This document shows, piece after piece, positions 9,958 through 31,074 of a stretch of 35,091 bases of DNA (positions are counted from its first letter, which is position 1; each line of letters starts with the position of its first letter). Source of the stretch: a virus (lineage: Duplodnaviria > Caudoviricetes); the IMG/VR virus record IMGVR_UViG_3300049070_000074, positions 1 to 35,091 of that record; one strand, given 5' to 3'. The translations under genes were made by a program, and so were the position numbers. The notes beneath the pieces are model-generated. The model ran no database searches. It was not told where the DNA came from and saw only the letters and a program-made list of their open reading frames with translations.

Positions 9958-12183
9958 CTACAGCCGACCAATCGGCGGGAAGTCGGCGGTGATCTTCTTC
10001 ATGTCGCCCTTGTAAGCGACGATGATCTTCTGCTCCCGCTTGGGGAACTTCCGCATGTCCAGCGTTTTCTTGGCCTGCGCCAGCCTGGTGAACTCAGCCT
10101 CGAGGTAGACGATCTTGTTGTAGACGCTCAGGCCGTGGTCCTTCATCCATATCTCGGTCTCGGCCTCGTGACAGTGATAGGCACCCTTGGTGTCGCGGCT
10201 GTCGCCGGTCATCACCACGAAGAAGCGGTTGTTGGCCAGCCGTGACAAGGCCACCTCGTAGCCAGCGAACAGGGTGTCGCGGAACTTCTCGTATGTGGAC
10301 AGCGCGTTGATCTCGCCATCGGGAATCTCGCCGTCGTAGTCGACGTACCGCTCGACGCGGTAGTACGGCGGACAGGTGAAGATTAGGTCGAACTCCTCGC
10401 CAGGGTCGTAGGTGGAGCTGTCAGCCTTTACCCACTTGACGTTCTCGAACTCGGAGCACAGCGCGTTGTTGGCGTCCACCTGGTTCTGTCGGATCTCGCT
10501 GGCCAGATAGCCGTAGCCGCTGGCGCCGGTCACGTAGCCGAACTGGACACCGCCACCGAATGGGTTGTAAACCTTGCCGCCGTCGGGAGTGAAGAACCGC
10601 AGGATGACCTCGCAGGCCACCGGGTCGAGGACCGAGGCGTTGCCGTTGTGCGACCGCCCTGTCACCACGTTGGCGAATCCCTGCTCACCCTGCCAGCATC
10701 CCTCACGGCTGGCGAAGGATGGGTTGGGGATTCCCTCGCGGACGCCGGCTTCCTCGATGCGGTCCTTCCATTCGCCCTTGAGGCGTAGCCAGTCTCCCTT
10801 GGTGCTGTTCCACACGTTGGTCATCGAGATGTGCGCCAGCGTCTTGCGCCGATGCACCGCCGGGTCGCCAGCCAGCATGTAGTGGAAGCCCGACATCTGT
10901 AGGTACGTCTCGAACCCCAGGCTGTTGAACACCGCCGGTGTCTCGAACTTGCTCTTTGGGTTGGTGGTCATTAGCGCCGGATAGCCCGCGGTGTTGGCTG
11001 CCAGCACCTGCTCGGCCATCGCCCGGTACAGCTCAGGCGTGTAGTGCTCCGGCTCGATGACCGACTGCAGCAAGCAGAACTCCCCGACCTTTTCGTTGAC
11101 TTGGAAGGTAAAGAACCCGGCGAACTTGCCACCAACCAGCAAAATGATCGCCGAGTGGATCTGCATGTTCTTGCGGGCCGCCCGGTGGGCGATGCCGTCC
11201 TCGAGCGCCAGCTTGGCAACGTCGGCCTCGAACCCCGAGCCGATGACCGACTCGACGTAGCGGAACTCATAGTCGCCGTCACCGTCGATTAGTGAAGGCG
11301 ATGGGTCGTCGGCTTCCTCGAAGCCGGGCAGGTACACCTGGTCGATCATCTGTAGCTCCTTCTTGGGTGGCTGTAGTGCTCCGCACTGATCGGGGCATGC
11401 GGCACACGAACCTAGATACACGTCCGGCTTGTGTAGTGAAACAAACGTTCCGCCCACACTGTCCGGCCGATTGGTGGCCCGAATATCCCCGTTGAGTAGG
11501 TGGGGATTGTTCGGGGAAACACGTAGCGGATTATCGATAACTGGCGGTAGGGTCAGCAGGTAATCCTGCTTGGCCTTGGCCGCCCTCCCCCATTCCGTAT
11601 CACCGTAGTCCGCGGTCACTACGCGGTTGACGCTGCGGATCCCAAAGTCACGCAAGCGTTCGTATTGACGCACCCGATGGCGCAGTTCCGCGTCGGTGTC
11701 AAAGCCGCTGGTCGAGGTGTTGACCACCACATCCAAGTCCAATAGTTGGCTGATGTGGTCATCGGTCAGCGGTATCCAATGCTTGGTAATGATGACGGCG
11801 GTCATCTCGGCGCGGCGTAGGGCGCGGATAACCTTGACCGTCTGGTTCCAGTCGTGGCACGGATCGCCCATCACCCCGATGCGATACCAAGTAGCCGGGA
11901 AGGCGCGCAGTTGTTTGACGATGGTGTCCCGGTGCTCACGCCAGTCGGTGAAACCGCGGGTAACGCTCTGAGCGAAGTCGTAGCCGTAGCGTGAGGCAAC
12001 GCGCTGGGCGTAGCAGTCGTCATAGCAGCCGTGCTCCTTGCGCGCCCGCATGCCCATCGTGCAGCCCTTGACGGTGTCCACGTCGATAACGCCCTTGAGG
12101 TTTACGGTGGCGGTGATGGCGTCGTGGTATCGGATGGGTGTTCGCTCGATGTTGAACAGCCTTTGCTGCCCGTGCTTGCTCAC
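9958..12183 (-). CDS. Fusion: radical SAM-like domain, GNAT-like domain and amino-(N4/N6) DNA methyltransferase
   Basis: GCx11Cx3CYA, RIGVMGDP, IITK (radical SAM-like); LLVGGKFAGFF..FCLLQSVIEPE..FNSLGF (GNAT-like); NPFGGG and FTCPPY (MTase). Start GTG 12183 at a GTGA overlap. Confidence 0.75.
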   Translation of the reverse strand: MSKHGQQRLFNIERTPIRYHDAITATVNLKGVIDVDTVKGCTMGMRARKEHGCYDDCYAQRVASRYGYDFAQSVTRGFTDWREHRDTIVKQLRAFPATWYRIGVMGDPCHDWNQTVKVIRALRRAEMTAVIITKHWIPLTDDHISQLLDLDVVVNTSTSGFDTDAELRHRVRQYERLRDFGIRSVNRVVTADYGDTEWGRAAKAKQDYLLTLPPVIDNPLRVSPNNPHLLNGDIRATNRPDSVGGTFVSLHKPDVYLGSCAACPDQCGALQPPKKELQMIDQVYLPGFEEADDPSPSLIDGDGDYEFRYVESVIGSGFEADVAKLALEDGIAHRAARKNMQIHSAIILLVGGKFAGFFTFQVNEKVGEFCLLQSVIEPEHYTPELYRAMAEQVLAANTAGYPALMTTNPKSKFETPAVFNSLGFETYLQMSGFHYMLAGDPAVHRRKTLAHISMTNVWNSTKGDWLRLKGEWKDRIEEAGVREGIPNPSFASREGCWQGEQGFANVVTGRSHNGNASVLDPVACEVILRFFTPDGGKVYNPFGGGVQFGYVTGASGYGYLASEIRQNQVDANNALCSEFENVKWVKADSSTYDPGEEFDLIFTCPPYYRVERYVDYDGEIPDGEINALSTYEKFRDTLFAGYEVALSRLANNRFFVVMTGDSRDTKGAYHCHEAETEIWMKDHGLSVYNKIVYLEAEFTRLAQAKKTLDMRKFPKREQKIIVAYKGDMKKITADFPPIGRL

Positions 12184-13808: not shown

Positions 13809-14108
13809 TCAGGCTGCGGTGAACATCTCCGTTTGCTCGTAGTCGTCGGCCCGCAGGCGGCGGGCGGTACTGCGGACGGCCCACGCCGTTCGCATCTGGC
13901 TGGTCACGCGGCGCCGCAGGGCGTCGAAGGTCGCCAGCAGCTCGGCCGGGTCATCGGTCAACCACACGCCGTCCTCGCTGGAGGCGATGGGTTCACCGGC
14001 CAGCCGGCGCTCCTGCACTTCCGCCTGGACGGCGCGCGGCGTGGTGCCGTAGTCGTCGGCGAGGTCGGCGTAGGTTCTCGCGTTGTCGCGGCCGCGGGGC
14101 AGGTTCAC
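13809..14108 (-). CDS. Winged-helix/HTH DNA-binding protein
   Basis: TYADLADDYGTTPRAVQAEVQERRLAGEPIASS..GVW. Confidence 0.65.
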   Translation of the reverse strand: MNLPRGRDNARTYADLADDYGTTPRAVQAEVQERRLAGEPIASSEDGVWLTDDPAELLATFDALRRRVTSQMRTAWAVRSTARRLRADDYEQTEMFTAA

Positions 14109-14677
14109 GCGGCCACCTCCAGCTCGCCGAGGACGCCCCACTGTTCGGCGATGGCGTCGGCCAGTCCCTGGTAGGTCCGGCTGCGGTTCTTCCAGCGGTC
14201 AGGCGAGGGCGGTTCCTTCCAGACGCGCCCCTCGCGGCCGGCGACGACGTTGGTCGGCGCCAGCGGCGGCAGGTTCTTCAGCCACCAGCAAGTGGCCTTC
14301 GTCTCGGGGTGGCCGAACATCCAGGGCTGGACAATCTGGTCCGGCTTGCGGATGCGGGAGCTGATGACGCTGACCGGGTTCTCCAGCGCGATCCGCGGAA
14401 TGGGTGCGTCCAGCAACTCGCGGACGAACTGCAGGGCGTACCACTGTTCCATCTGCTTGTCCTTGAACCAGCGAGCGCCGGACACGGCGAGGTGGGTGCA
14501 AGGCGGGTGGGCGATCATCAGATCCCAGCCGGCGTTGAGCACGTCCAGCACGTCGCCCTGATGGTGGGGGCCGGGCCGCTCGGTTGGCAGCAGGTCGACA
14601 CTGATCGCGTCATGGCCGCGAGCGATGAACGCATCGCGCACGATGCCGCTGAACTCGCAGGCTACCAGGACCTTCAC
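14105..14677 (-). CDS. Short phage DNA cytosine-C5 methyltransferase-like protein
   Basis: VLVACEFSG, SVDL, GDV, AHPPCT (catalytic PC), LENP. Confidence 0.85.
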   Translation of the reverse strand: MKVLVACEFSGIVRDAFIARGHDAISVDLLPTERPGPHHQGDVLDVLNAGWDLMIAHPPCTHLAVSGARWFKDKQMEQWYALQFVRELLDAPIPRIALENPVSVISSRIRKPDQIVQPWMFGHPETKATCWWLKNLPPLAPTNVVAGREGRVWKEPPSPDRWKNRSRTYQGLADAIAEQWGVLGELEVAA

Positions 14678-14865
14678 GCCGCCTCCGCTGCCACAGCGGC
14701 CGTCTGAGCGGCCCACACGGCGTCCTGCGCGGCGTTCAGCGCCACCGACTCCGCGATGGCGTCGCGCACCTTGGCGAAGCTGCCAGGCTGGACGTCCTTG
14801 GCGGTGCCGGTGAGGACGGCGAGGCGCCACTGGCCGGCGACGAGGAGGACGCAGTAGCGGGTCAC
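14674..14865 (-). CDS. Hypothetical protein
   Basis: GTGA coupling on both sides. Confidence 0.55.
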   Translation of the reverse strand: MTRYCVLLVAGQWRLAVLTGTAKDVQPGSFAKVRDAIAESVALNAAQDAVWAAQTAAVAAEAA

Positions 14866-16709: not shown

Positions 16710-16921
16710 GCAGCCACCGAGCCTTCATAGACTGCCGCGGCAAACCGCTCGTCATGGCAGCTGCACCGCTCGTTGTCACACCATTCGCATCGGACGTTTG
16801 GCTCGCCGCGTTCAACGGCCAACCACTCGCAGGAACAGGTGGAACAGGCGTATTGGCAGAATCCAAAGTAGAGATGCCACGACGCCTCGACGCCGATGGG
16901 CTGCGGAACCTTGATCGTCAC
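16706..16921 (-). CDS. Cys-rich small protein
   Basis: Multiple CxxC motifs; GTGA coupling. Confidence 0.5.
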   Translation of the reverse strand: MTIKVPQPIGVEASWHLYFGFCQYACSTCSCEWLAVERGEPNVRCEWCDNERCSCHDERFAAAVYEGSVAA

Positions 16922-17643
16922 GGCAACGCCTCGCGTCCCACCGCGCACATGCGCTCCAGCAGGTCCTCGGCGGAGGCCGTCAGCTCCTTGACCGTCTCGG
17001 CGAGCGCCGCATCAATCAGCGGGCGGGCGGCCTTGTACGCCGCGTCGTACTGCGCGCTATAGCCCTTCTTCTTGGAAGCGGCGGCCCGAGCGGCGGCCCA
17101 AGCGGCGGCCCGAGCGGCGGCCCAAGCGGCGTCCCAAGCGGCGGCCCGAGCGGCGGCCCAAGCGGCGTCCCAAACGGCGGCCCAAGCGGCGTATGACGCT
17201 TTGCGGGCATCGTCGATGATCGGCTGCGCCCGTCGCGCGAGGTCCGTGCTAGTCAGCTCATTGAGTCCTCGCAGCCTGATGGCGTGCTCGGTCAGCCCAG
17301 CCTTGTCCAGCCAGGTCGGGGTGAAGGTCCGCACCAGCCAGTCGGTCGCCAGCCACACACGCCGCTCCTCGTCGGCCGGCGTGGTGCGCGTCTCGATCAT
17401 GGTCGGGATAAAGCGCTTGAGCCGCTGTCGCTCGGTATCGGGCAGCGAATCGTTCCAGGACCGCCCGAAAGCGGCGATCACCGGCGACACGCATTGCGGA
17501 GCATCGCTGAACGGCTGGCCCTGAACGTAGGACACGGCCTCCAGCAGGCACATCCCCTTCTCCGGGGACGAGTGCCAACCGGACTCCAGCTTCAGGCCCC
17601 GGATGAAACTGCGCCAGTTCTTGAGGCGCGGGGTGGCAGTCAT
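16918..17643 (-). CDS. Phage protein with AAW/AAR tetrapeptide repeats
   Basis: MCLLEAVS...FSDAPQCVSPVIAAFGRSWND N-terminal domain; repeat region. Confidence 0.75.
   Translation of the reverse strand: MTATPRLKNWRSFIRGLKLESGWHSSPEKGMCLLEAVSYVQGQPFSDAPQCVSPVIAAFGRSWNDSLPDTERQRLKRFIPTMIETRTTPADEERRVWLATDWLVRTFTPTWLDKAGLTEHAIRLRGLNELTSTDLARRAQPIIDDARKASYAAWAAVWDAAWAAARAAAWDAAWAAARAAAWAAARAAASKKKGYSAQYDAAYKAARPLIDAALAETVKELTASAEDLLERMCAVGREALP
17077..17196. repeat. 10 x 12-bp tandem coding repeat (AGCGGCG[G/T]CCC[A/G])
   Basis: Read directly from the sequence. Confidence 0.9.
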
Positions 17644-17654
17644 GTTTGCTCCAG

Positions 17655-17837
17655 TCACGTCGACCACCCGAGCCACAGCAGGAATGGGATGCCGAAGAAC
17701 AGAGCCAGGAACACCACCACACCCAGCACGATCTCGCCGCCGTCCTTGGCGTGATCCCTCCAGCTGGCCTTGTATGGCGCGGCCTGCTGATACATCGGGT
17801 GGTAGGCGCGGCAACGGCGACAGTAGCGACCGTTCAC
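17655..17837 (-). CDS. Small protein with CxxC and a C-terminal TM
   Basis: GTG at 17837; hydrophobic tail. Confidence 0.6.
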   Translation of the reverse strand: MNGRYCRRCRAYHPMYQQAAPYKASWRDHAKDGGEIVLGVVVFLALFFGIPFLLWLGWST

Positions 17838-18013
17838 GCTGCGTCCTCCGGCGTCCACTCGGACATGTCCTTCGGCGGCAGGCCCTTGGTCTGCATCCGC
17901 TGGATCCAGACGGGCTTGCGCTCCCGCCGGAACGGGATGACAACGCCGCCGCTGACCGGCTGGCGGTGCTTCTTCTCGATGCGGTCGAGGATGGGTGTAG
18001 GGCTTCCGTTCAT
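17834..18013 (-). CDS. Hypothetical protein
   Basis: MNGSPTP... from an ATGA overlap. Confidence 0.55.
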   Translation of the reverse strand: MNGSPTPILDRIEKKHRQPVSGGVVIPFRRERKPVWIQRMQTKGLPPKDMSEWTPEDAA

Positions 18014-18689: not shown

Positions 18690-18756
18690 GGCAGTAATCT
18701 GCCACAGATGGCAGAAATGTGTCAAGCCCTATTTTTGATGCGGCAGATGTCTGCCA
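18689..18756. promoter_or_regulatory. Early promoter (minus strand, TTGACA-N18-CAGATT) with three TGGCAG-N4-CTGCCA operators
   Basis: Operators at 18689-18704, 18709-18724 and 18741-18756; -35 at 18720-18725; -10 at 18696-18701. Confidence 0.7.
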
Positions 18757-18766
18757 AAGTGCGACG

Positions 18767-19168
18767 ATGCCGGACGTGCAACAGCTCCTCGCGTTGGCGA
18801 ACGGCGCGGCGCTGCTGTGGAACGGATGGCGACCGATAGCGTGGGGCATGCTCATTGTGTTCATCAGCGTCGCCTTCTGGCCGCAGCTGTGGGTTGACTG
18901 GATCGCCGTAGTCCGCGCCTCGAGCGACGCACATCCGCTGGCGGACTGGCTCCTCCCCCGCTTAGCGATTGCCGTGGCGCTGGTGCTCGTCGGCCGCTGG
19001 CGCGGCTGGCGCTGGACGGTGCCGCTGGCGGTCATGCTGGCGCAGCCCATCCTGTGGTACACGTCCTTCGCCATCCTGACGGGCTGGGTGTGGCTGCTCA
19101 GGCAGTCAGGTCAACCGTCAGGTCGTACTGCTTCAGCGATGCAGCCGTCAACGTCCCCCGGTAGTTGA
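18767..19168 (+). CDS. Membrane protein resembling the C-terminal part of GT87/DUF2029 glycosyltransferases (5'-truncated or relic)
   Basis: LLW..WR...WPQLWVDW...LPRLAIAVALV...WTVPLAVMLAQPILW; about 4 TM segments; recognised from memory of the family. Confidence 0.5.
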   Translation: MPDVQQLLALANGAALLWNGWRPIAWGMLIVFISVAFWPQLWVDWIAVVRASSDAHPLADWLLPRLAIAVALVLVGRWRGWRWTVPLAVMLAQPILWYTSFAILTGWVWLLRQSGQPSGRTASAMQPSTSPGS

Positions 19169-29231: not shown

Positions 29232-30884
29232 TTAGGAGGCCAGGTCGAACGTGGTGAACGCTGCCGGGGCCAGCGGCATATAGAAGATCGTGCCCGCCAG
29301 AGCGATGTCACGACCCAGGATCGCCGGCTTGTCAGCCTGCAGCTCGAACGTGCCGTCCTCGGCCCATGCGTACTGCTCACTGGGACCGACGATGGCATCC
29401 ACGCCGGAACCTGCCAGCGCGGGAACCACAACCACCCGCAGACCGGACACGGTGCCCGACTGCCCGCCCGCGTTCAGCGAGCTGGTGATGCCCGCATACA
29501 GCGGAGCATTGGTGGTGTTGGCCTTGGCGTCGATGAACGCTGCCATCGCCGCCGGGGACAGCCACAGGGTGTCCGGCGGAGTCAGCGCCACGTCCATCGC
29601 GTTCTCCCACGCCTGACCCAGGGTCAGGTCGTTCGGGTCGATGGATCCGCCGTCCTGCGGCGTGGTCGCCGGGCCGGACCCGACGGTGATGCCGTTCAGC
29701 AGGGCGGCCACGCCCTCGGCCTCAGCCTTGGCGGCATAGGCCGCGAACATCGCTCGGCGCAGCAGGTCGAAGTAGGTGCGAGGCCCACGACGAATGAACT
29801 GCATCGAGATGTCCACCGCGCCGGCGATGGTGATGCCCGGGATCAGGGCGTTCTCGATCTTCAGCGCCGCGCTGGCGACCTCGGTCTTCTCCTCCGACTG
29901 GACGTCGGCCTCGGGACTCTGGGTCATCACCGGGATGCTGATTGCGGCACCCGACTCCGGCGCAGCCACCTCGTTGGTGGATGACAGGAACGGGCGGCGC
30001 GGGTTGACGAAGGCGACGATCTCGGGGCGAACCGCGTCGGGGACGTACTGGTCACCGAGCAGGACATCCGCCAGCTCGCGCTCCTCGAGCTGCCGCGAGT
30101 TCAGCGGCTCACCGGCGCGAGTCTTCAGCACGGCCTCGAGCCAGCTGTAGAACTTCGGTGCGGCATCCGCCTTATGCGGGACGACGATGGCCGAGCGCTC
30201 GCGCTCCTCCATCTTCTCTAGACGATCAAGGATCTTCTCGTTGGTCTCGTCGGACTTCTCGTCCCGAGCCTTGAAGGCGGCCTCGATCTGGTTGCTAATG
30301 ACCGAGAGATCAACGGCGGTCGTCTGCTCGGCCGGGTTCTCGGCCACTGGGGTCTCCTCTTCCTGCTCGCGGATAGCGAGCACTTGTGCCTGCTGGTAGG
30401 CAGGCATCCAGGTGGTGGACACCTCGCGCAGAACTGCGCGGGTGTAGACAGCCGTCCGGTGGCCATCGACGCTGCGGTACTCGGTTCCACCCGGCACCGT
30501 CTCGAAGCCAACGGACACACCCTTCGTCACGCCATCGCTGGCGAGCGTCAGGATCTCGTCGCCTTTCTGGGTCTTAGAAACCCGGAAGGCCATGTAGGCG
30601 CCGTCCTCGCGGTCCTCGATGGAGAGGCCACGGCCGGCGGGTGGGTCCTGGTGCGACATCCGCAGCACCACGTCCCCGGCTTGGGTGTCACTGAAGGCGC
30701 CGCGAGCGAACATCTCCCGACCAGCACTGGTCTGGATGACGCTGTTCCACGGCACGATGCGGGCTTCGATCTCCCGCTTCTCGAGGTCGCGGACTTGGAT
30801 ACCGTCAAGCGGCAGCTCGCGGCTCTCGGTCTGCTCTACTTCGGCCTCTGCCGATTCCTCAGCCTGCTGCTCGATGTCAGGCAT
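29232..30884 (-). CDS. Prohead protease - major capsid protein fusion (HK97 fold)
   Basis: Protease EMFARGAF, MSH, GVSVGF, LREVS; coiled-coil delta region; capsid motifs such as ISMQFI and VSGLRVVV; start MPDIEQQ at 30884. Confidence 0.9.
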   Translation of the reverse strand: MPDIEQQAEESAEAEVEQTESRELPLDGIQVRDLEKREIEARIVPWNSVIQTSAGREMFARGAFSDTQAGDVVLRMSHQDPPAGRGLSIEDREDGAYMAFRVSKTQKGDEILTLASDGVTKGVSVGFETVPGGTEYRSVDGHRTAVYTRAVLREVSTTWMPAYQQAQVLAIREQEEETPVAENPAEQTTAVDLSVISNQIEAAFKARDEKSDETNEKILDRLEKMEERERSAIVVPHKADAAPKFYSWLEAVLKTRAGEPLNSRQLEERELADVLLGDQYVPDAVRPEIVAFVNPRRPFLSSTNEVAAPESGAAISIPVMTQSPEADVQSEEKTEVASAALKIENALIPGITIAGAVDISMQFIRRGPRTYFDLLRRAMFAAYAAKAEAEGVAALLNGITVGSGPATTPQDGGSIDPNDLTLGQAWENAMDVALTPPDTLWLSPAAMAAFIDAKANTTNAPLYAGITSSLNAGGQSGTVSGLRVVVVPALAGSGVDAIVGPSEQYAWAEDGTFELQADKPAILGRDIALAGTIFYMPLAPAAFTTFDLAS

Positions 30885-31074
30885 TGAGGCGCTCGACAAT
30901 CTCGGCCTTGGTGCCGGAGGCATCCACGCCCCGCTCCTCGGCCTCAGCGACGAGTTCGGCCTTGGTCAGCGACTCGTCAACTACGGGGGCGGTAGCAGCC
31001 TTGGTGCGCTTCCCGCCGATGCGGCGCAGACGGATGGACCGTCCGACCTGGAAGGTTTCCCACTGCTTAGACAC
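30877..31074 (-). CDS. 65-aa SAP/HeH-like helix-extension-helix protein
   Basis: LTKAELVAEAEERGVDASGTKAEIVERL. Confidence 0.75.
   Translation of the reverse strand: MSKQWETFQVGRSIRLRRIGGKRTKAATAPVVDESLTKAELVAEAEERGVDASGTKAEIVERLNA

Follow-up and report, generated by a model that had tools for sequence, protein, structure and literature searches.

Radical S-adenosylmethionine (SAM) enzymes that act on DNA are few, and the pertinent part of a 2021 report names spore photoproduct lyase and gp53 of Pseudomonas phage M6 (PMC8989533). As described there, gp53 is a spore photoproduct lyase-like enzyme with the canonical motif CTVGCAFC and a second Fe-S motif, which acts after replication on a group that another enzyme has added to DNA. 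Its partners in a 5-hydroxymethyldeoxyuridine (5-hmdU) pathway are a kinase, aGPT-Pplase2 and a pyridoxal phosphate (PLP) enzyme, and amino groups on DNA can be tailored both by gp53 and by the GNAT gp48 of phage PaMx11 (PMC8989533). Mom of phage Mu is, as far as the cited excerpt goes, a single GNAT-fold enzyme that works with Gly-tRNA and for which action on a base amine, without canonical use of acetyl-coenzyme A (acetyl-CoA), has been proposed (PMC13219725). Methylases of phage ParB-terminase loci are named as predicted DNA modifiers in part of a further paper (PMC4738411). Here we describe a 741-aa open reading frame (ORF) on the minus strand of IMG/VR virus record IMGVR_UViG_3300049070_000074, in which a divergent radical SAM domain, a GNAT-fold domain and a methyltransferase domain are encoded together. 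The window, by which we mean the whole stretch of 35,091 bases that was analysed, is tailed-phage DNA with terminase, portal, capsid and tape measure genes.

With a probability that we put at about three in four, this cassette carries out clamp-tethered, post-replicative hypermodification, in which a DNA base receives more than a methyl group and both the radical SAM module and the GNAT-methyltransferase module are needed. It would then be a phage DNA hypermodification system, and there is a fair chance that its chemistry is new. Compared with gp53, the cassette has the Cys spacing Cx11Cx3C and a GNAT-methyltransferase partner, and no 5-hmdU-pathway genes of the M6 type recurred among the neighbour clusters of cassette loci. 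Unlike Mom, its GNAT is joined to a methyltransferase. The methyltransferase domain is the same non-permuted CPPY domain (phrog_498, about 19-35% identity) as in the ParB-fused phage methyltransferases that we compared (Croceibacter P2559S gp66, Pseudomonas ZRG1, Pam4 gp70 and Listeria B054 gp77), but the cassette has a GNAT in place of ParB, has gained clamp-type motifs, has NPFGGGVQF as motif I, and is partnered by a radical SAM enzyme rather than by an AdoMet decarboxylase or a PLP enzyme. Cellular tRNA enzymes offer further parallels: Elp3 is a radical SAM enzyme with a GNAT, and TYW1 and TYW2 place a radical SAM enzyme and a methylase-fold 3-amino-3-carboxypropyl (acp) transferase in one pathway, that of wybutosine. 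These enzymes have canonical Cys triads and Elp3 binds acetyl-CoA, whereas the cassette has neither the canonical triad in its radical SAM domain nor the acetyl-CoA loop in its GNAT.

All of the motifs quoted in a preliminary description of this DNA were found in the single frame: the Cys cluster C41-x11-C53-x3-C57-YA, RIGVMGDP (residues 101-108), IITK (131-134), CAACPDQC (260-267), NPFGGG (from residue 540) and TCPPY (603-607). The ORF starts with GTG at 12183, with GGAGG 7 nt upstream. Because at least 119 homologs besides the protein itself, among the matches listed, align with it at 94-100% coverage and 62-81% identity, the frame is no assembly accident. Among uncultured phages, 2111 of 7997 scored candidates matched with E <= 0.001, and many of these matches may be to the methyltransferase part only. 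None of the 50,697 GenBank phage records searched covers 80% of the protein, the 29 matches lying in the methyltransferase part, and searches of Pfam, PHROGs, NCBIfam, PADLOC and PDB sequences returned methyltransferase-type matches and missed the first two domains. The architecture had not been recognised as characterised, and in the literature searched we found no account of it, or of phage DNA methylases that transfer aminoalkyl groups. It may have been predicted before; Iyer et al. 2013 reportedly covers ParB-terminase loci and may predict parts of the cassette. The cassette fits in one 2.2-kb gene, is common in uncultured phages and has no full-length match in GenBank phage records. Its chemistry could reveal a new DNA base, and bears on whether enzymes of the methylase fold can use the other SAM arm to alkylate DNA.

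Predicted folds of the radical SAM and GNAT domains

The full-length structural model (mean predicted local distance difference test score (pLDDT) 83, predicted template modelling score 0.55) contained a disordered linker at residues 277-301. Folded alone, the N-terminal domain reached a pLDDT of 96 and gave a partial TIM-barrel radical SAM fold by Foldseek and VIA comparison, with three invariant Cys placed after the first strand. Each of the 12 Foldseek matches listed with E <= 0.001 is a radical SAM enzyme (3cb8, E 6.5e-5). The best VIA match was spore photoproduct lyase (Z 12.3, root-mean-square deviation (rmsd) 4.1, 221 residues aligned), with viperin-like enzymes within 1 Z of it. Identity to spore photoproduct lyase is 13%, and the cassette domain differs from it in its Cys spacing and in an extra C-terminal CxxCxxxC. 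Six Cys are invariant in 50/50 aligned full-length homologs, and the distal CxxCxxxC is invariant in 50/50 and 120/120 alignment rows. The 11/3 spacing, found in 70 of 90 distinct radical SAM domains, is not that of the canonical CxxxCxxC triad. The domain is predicted to bind Fe-S and to be catalytic.

The preliminary description had likened this domain to barrels of the spore photoproduct lyase/DUF5131 type with non-canonical Cys spacing. The fold and the spacing hold. Neither DUF5131 nor GP88 gave a match at the curated cut-off: DUF5131 (PF07505) matched 0/120 members and GP88 (PF17338) 1/120 at E 0.046. Atlas features neighbouring the domain were GP88 (0.95) and DUF5131 (0.90). Pfam Radical_SAM found no match in 120/120 members of this divergent family, and the profile of the domain gave chance matches only (E > 1) against the PDB.

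The middle domain matched GNATs structurally (7l1k, Z 16.1, rmsd 2.1, 131 aligned), in keeping with the GNAT-like segment first noticed there, and per-domain structural comparison, a check of the kind proposed in the preliminary description, assigned radical SAM and GNAT folds to the N-terminal and middle domains. Viral NAT_SF matches were also obtained; the GNAT profile reached 3bln in the PDB at E 0.85, and an Atlas score of 0.82 is a lead only. The core is highly conserved, with E-F-C-L-L-Q-S invariant in strand 4 and a basic RAARK patch. In GNATs, the motif A loop R/Q-x-x-G-x-G/A binds the CoA pyrophosphate. This loop was found in 0 of 104 distinct GNAT domains, and because of its absence the acyl transfer step originally proposed is weakened as far as an acyl-CoA donor is concerned, while the GNAT fold itself stands. 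By analogy, a CoA-independent donor would have a precedent in Mom and its Gly-tRNA.

The missing loop bears on two other schemes. In one, the GNAT acts first and aminoacylates the base from a charged tRNA, the radical SAM domain isomerises the adduct as gp53 does, and the methyltransferase methylates the product. The excerpts cited above have Mom using Gly-tRNA on adenine N6 (PMC13219725) and gp53, a spore photoproduct lyase-like enzyme with about two clusters, isomerising glycyl-thymine in DNA (PMC8989533), and both the lack of a CoA loop and the RAARK patch would suit such a route. However, homology to Mom was not detected (no profile similarity to the single Mu Mom sequence; hhalign probability 0.1%, E 0.65), the GNAT always lay in a methyltransferase-bearing frame in the loci found, contig-end cuts aside, and CPPY motifs work directly on base amines; we consider this order improbable. 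In the other scheme, acetyl-CoA would be the source of a carboxymethyl radical that the radical SAM and GNAT domains jointly generate and attach to the base, followed by methylation by the methyltransferase. The domain pair and its order are those of Elp3, and Elp3 is a non-significant match (E 0.29) of the profile of a replacement radical SAM described below. Yet the acetyl-CoA loop is absent, the modules are also found unfused, with either gene first, the radical SAM fold is closest to spore photoproduct lyase, and neither the protein nor its domain profiles matched Elp3, so that an Elp3-like reaction has very little to recommend it.

Table 1. Positions of the ORF and of its predicted domains and motifs in the window
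Feature	Position	Strand	Remarks
Whole ORF, radical SAM module and GNAT-methyltransferase module in one frame	9958..12183	-	741 aa
QQRLF, QxxLF clamp-type motif in disordered N-tail, residues 6-10	12154..12168	-	consensus match; candidate clamp-binding site
Divergent spore photoproduct lyase-like radical SAM domain, residues 12-270	11374..12150	-	structure prediction, structural matches
Predicted SAM-binding [4Fe-4S] motif C41-x11-C53-x3-C57-YA	12007..12069	-	invariant Cys
C260-xx-C263-xxx-C267, predicted second metal or Fe-S site	11383..11406	-	invariant Cys
Disordered linker with internal AAGGAG and ATG (M279, 11347-11349) and degenerate clamp-type motif QVYLP	11275..11373	-	
GNAT-fold domain, residues 304-440; invariant AxRAARKNMQxHSA and EFCLLQS; without R/QxxGxG loop	10864..11274	-	
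Non-permuted amino-methyltransferase fold, kin of ParB-fused phage methyltransferases; NPFGGGVQF 10540-10566, TCPPY 10363-10377	9958..10863	-	

Pairing of the two modules and clamp-type motifs

Three domains do lie in one frame, as the term triple fusion had implied, but the architecture is not fixed: it is a labile join of two modules, radical SAM and GNAT-methyltransferase, whose two genes have been repeatedly joined or split. Among 101 GNAT-seeded loci (80 viral and 21 from genomes, duplicates kept), the divergent radical SAM was fused, upstream or downstream in 93. The other eight comprise two with a different, canonical radical SAM (L168, L185), one with a broken copy thereof (L184), three cut by contig ends, and L146/L147. 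A GNAT-methyltransferase was present in 85/92 radical SAM-seeded loci; of the rest, two are truncated and five (L019, L020, L089, L090 and L091) are located within or next to terminase loci, and several of these have a ParB, TAGT, PAPS-reductase-like, PALP or other radical SAM gene. The 109 distinct GNAT domains, a tally pooled over all searches and biased upward, divide into 59 fused, 19 with the radical SAM upstream, 14 with it downstream, 13 with another radical SAM, 3 truncated and 1 alone. In a FastTree tree of 101 GNAT-methyltransferases, the fused state changed at least nine times and the replacement radical SAM at least five; pairing persists through order swaps and at least nine fusion or fission events. 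An internal Shine-Dalgarno sequence with ATG occurred in the linker of 32/54 distinct fused genes, compared with 44 of 842 ATGs inside domains, and a second, shorter product is likely to be made from such a start; for the 741-aa ORF, initiation at M279 would give 463 aa.

Where the divergent radical SAM has no GNAT-methyltransferase (L089:5968-9221; L091:5506-7926; L019:1652-3491; L020:370-4419), we observed ParB and a second radical SAM, a PAPS-reductase-like gene, TAGT and an FkbM methylase, or PALP. Clustering of the neighbours in 92 loci revealed no third conserved partner, the most frequent genes being C5-methylase-like (11 distinct loci), and placed the cassette mostly among early recombination and replication genes.

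The replacement radical SAM is spore photoproduct lyase-like with a canonical CxxxCxYC motif. It matches Pfam Radical_SAM at E 4e-8, and the PA0069 family and radical SAM mobile pair B below cut-off (NF033668, TIGR04470). With the divergent domain it aligned over 175 columns with the motifs in register (hhalign E 6.6e-4, probability 27%). It accompanies a GNAT-methyltransferase in 14 of its 80 loci, and the other 66 contain ParB (40), ABC-GNAT (12), formyltransferase (10) and Vut_1 (9). In the parts of the sources cited, DNA modification is predicted for an ABC-GNAT pair (PMC7824862), and a place in 7-deazaguanine pathways for a formyltransferase (bioRxiv 2023.04.13.536721). By guilt by association, the neighbours of the unpaired enzymes would link both radical SAM families to DNA base chemistry. 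The contexts of both families support the link to DNA base modification that had been suggested for the ORF. In the ParB-terminase loci that contain canonical spore photoproduct lyase-like phage radical SAMs (L200-L272; e.g. L220:6267-7430, L215:5996-6655, L240:7004-7786, L262:7172-7849), the neighbours are ABC-GNAT, formyltransferase and Vut_1 genes and one protein without a Pfam match that resembles DpdA/TGT on visual inspection.

The clamp-binding consensus is given as Q-L-x-L-F in the excerpt of PMC4549789. The N-terminal tail of the 741-aa protein, disordered in the model (pLDDT < 50 for residues 1-9), contains a motif of this QLxLF type. Counts of QxxLF-type motifs, which were taken over related members and hence are not independent, amounted to 34/115 in the N-tails of fused proteins (1.2 expected), 61 of the 78 linkers parsed from 120 proteins (0.9 expected), 58/117 in the N-tails of stand-alone radical SAMs (1.6 expected) and 21/36 in stand-alone GNAT-methyltransferases (0.6 expected). 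The motif is rare in the bodies of the proteins (1/101 radical SAM cores, 0/87 GNAT-methyltransferase bodies) and was found in 1/149 ParB-type methyltransferases. Tails of the replacement radical SAM carry it in 6/12 cases when paired with a GNAT-methyltransferase versus 1/22 when unpaired. From this distribution we infer that QxxLF tails may dock both modules on the host beta clamp.

Clamp-type motifs, together with the ParB-terminase contexts of relatives and the DNA-methylase sequence matches given below, argue against host or phage tRNA as the substrate in place of DNA. The top structural matches of the methyltransferase domain, Trm11, TrmN and Trm14 (Z 16.3-17.5), would point that way, as would a radical SAM with a GNAT, which recalls Elp3. 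This structural ranking may merely mirror the non-permuted motif order, and an RNA target seems to us quite unlikely. A separate possibility is that the enzyme is an ordinary methylase producing N6-methyladenine (m6A) or N4-methylcytosine (m4C), with the GNAT as a dead DNA-binding domain that has replaced ParB and the radical SAM doing a separate job, e.g. lesion repair. The GNAT does occupy the ParB position of relatives, its sequence, without a CoA loop, would be compatible with a non-catalytic DNA-binding role, each module is occasionally found alone, and the best match of the radical SAM domain is a repair enzyme. But the radical SAM partner has been kept across repeated order swaps, fusions and a change to another radical SAM family, and the GNAT strand-4 motif is invariant, which leaves this possibility a slim chance.

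The methyltransferase domain and the group it may transfer

The C-terminal domain matched phrog_12517 (E 6.6e-41) and phrog_498 (E 2e-34), and Pfam N6_N4_Mtase no better than E 0.051. It has the Rossmann fold, motif I FxG and PPY-type motif IV of N6A/N4C-type enzymes in the form of NPFGGG and CPPY, and the amino-methyltransferase fold that had been read from NPFGGG and TCPPY is borne out. The motif xCPPY is present in 101/109 distinct members, the other eight being without it in the available stretch. The profile of the sister-clade methyltransferases matches DNA methylases, namely TTHA0409 (2zie, E 7.6e-14), CcrM and N4C methyltransferases. The cofactor of the cassette methyltransferase is likely to be SAM, from which either the methyl or the acp arm might be transferred.

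Relatives point to the second of these arms. An AdoMet decarboxylase gene follows the methyltransferase in Croceibacter P2559S and Pseudomonas ZRG1, and Asp after FxG goes with an AdoMet decarboxylase within 3.5 kb in 52/64 distinct loci of ParB-fused relatives, which are not 52 independent events because the Asp clade has essentially one origin in a quick tree. Among relatives with Gly at this position, the corresponding counts are 0/13 (leaving out a locus whose motif differs) and 0/74 distinct loci, 0/87 in total. In spermidine synthase, as stated in the excerpt cited, D103 of the GGGD motif selects decarboxylated SAM, and a change of D103 turns aminopropyl transfer into methyl transfer (PMC3725402); aligned by motif, Asp after FxG may be its positional equivalent. 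Gly-type relatives have a PLP enzyme in 16/74 loci, and a PALP-type enzyme is inserted in, fused to or beside the methyltransferase in L094:3101-5590, L098:4759-5469 and L393. Pam4 gp70, which bears a PLP-enzyme annotation, shows an insert within its methyltransferase match, and in Mae-JY30 a PLP enzyme lies next door. Because the sister clades look like aminoalkyl transferases, plain methylation as the first step, as originally envisaged, is in doubt. The cassette family may transfer the amino-acid arm of SAM rather than its methyl.

Among the relatives themselves, the Asp-type ParB-fused methyltransferases (L273-L356; L095:3536-5177; L097:3494-5339) are candidate DNA aminopropyltransferases. 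One Asp-keeping subclade (AGDTQK; L325, L327, L334, L345, L346, L348) has no AdoMet decarboxylase within 3.5 kb and may use decarboxylated SAM from the host. In L293, which falls within the Asp clade, the residue is Gly and an AdoMet decarboxylase neighbour is likewise lacking. Use of decarboxylated SAM by the cassette clade was rejected as the leading interpretation on account of its Gly at the Asp position and of the AdoMet decarboxylase counts in carriers given below.

The particular route that we favour, acp transfer by the methyltransferase followed by GNAT and radical tailoring, is tentative, and we give it less than even odds. QxxLF tails would first dock each module on the beta clamp, replacing the ParB domain of the methyltransferase relatives. 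The CPPY domain would then flip a base and move the 3-amino-3-carboxypropyl arm of SAM to an exocyclic amine, N6 of A, N4 of C or N2 of G. The alpha-amine so introduced would be bound or acylated by the GNAT, whose donor would not be acyl-CoA bound in the canonical way but possibly an aminoacyl-tRNA as in Mom; acetylation of acp has a tRNA precedent in acacp3U, according to the part of the source cited (PMC12588516). The radical SAM domain would finally take a hydrogen from the arm, which would be trimmed or rearranged, and the likely use of the modification would be protection from host nucleases. Doubtful, in our estimate, is the full picture, in which a base of the DNA would receive acp at the replication fork, and a CoA-independent GNAT and a two-cluster, non-canonical radical SAM enzyme, both held by the clamp, would make a new nucleoside. 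If true, it would be a self-contained hypermodification on canonical bases that leaves the nucleotide pool as it is, and the phage 'methylases' of a large family would be aminoalkyl transferases.

Methylation could instead come first, as in the order originally proposed, the methyltransferase making m6A, m4C or N2-methylguanine (m2G) and the radical SAM domain abstracting a methyl hydrogen and coupling a co-substrate held by the second cluster or by the GNAT. TYW1, which acts on m1G, is a precedent for radical coupling at a methyl. The CPPY motif, the closest sequence matches, which are the DNA amino-methylases named above, the invariant second three-Cys site, the lack of an AdoMet decarboxylase in carriers (0/50) and the absence of the Arg of Gly-type relatives would all be consistent with this order of events. 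Against it stand the absence of the acyl-CoA loop in 104/104 GNAT domains, the indications of aminoalkyl transfer in the sister clades and the different C-terminal Cys pattern of the replacement radical SAM. We regard it as unlikely, though as a serious competitor to acp transfer.

Several observations weigh against clamp-tethered hypermodification by acp transfer. CPPY enzymes normally methylate, and the best structural matches of the C-terminal domain are m2G tRNA methyltransferases (Z 16-17.5). Following the glycine loop, the cassette clade has Gly instead of Asp, and the position that is Arg in 85/86 Gly-type relatives is taken by Phe, Met or Tyr; in the quick tree it is a long branch (4.08) with an unsettled placement relative to the Asp and Gly clades, and the single origin of the Asp clade counts here as well. 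AdoMet decarboxylase was found in 0/50 records of carriers, of which 27 have a completeness of at least 90% (control positive in 7/14), and most Gly-type loci (58/74) have no PLP partner. The linker motif of the 741-aa protein itself is degenerate. L146/L147, from one phage record that is 43% complete, have a GNAT-methyltransferase and no radical SAM found, and the complete record L091 has a divergent radical SAM and no GNAT. Palindrome avoidance in carriers equalled that in Gly-type controls (p 0.28), and protection from restriction, as originally suggested, would be a candidate function. An initial signal of weaker palindrome avoidance in carriers (p 3e-7) was discarded as unspecific relative to these controls and reversed in the highest GC bin. 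K-mer analysis of carriers gave no k-mer indicating a target sequence.

Other observations on cassette copies and on the window

Some cassette copies contain a frameshift or stop, reflecting sequencing error or decay (L046:5962-8195; L084:5947-6799; L016:6001-6792; L020:3617-4419; L184:7311-7622). In the window, the ORF had been placed just upstream of the replication genes; a RusA-like gene (phrog_244) does lie downstream, but the other downstream ORFs are without a family match, and replication genes were not confirmed. A second, short DNA methyltransferase gene is present at 14105-14830 (-) (phrog_757, E 7e-69). The ORF at 16918-17943 (-) has Ala-Trp low-complexity repeats (AAWAAARAAAWD type) and weak matches to phrog_8332, 18326 and 3416. 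At 18719-19168 (+) lies a possible membrane protein without a family match, the rest of the genome being otherwise on the minus strand. A single ORF at 29232-30923 (-) combines a prohead protease and the major capsid protein.

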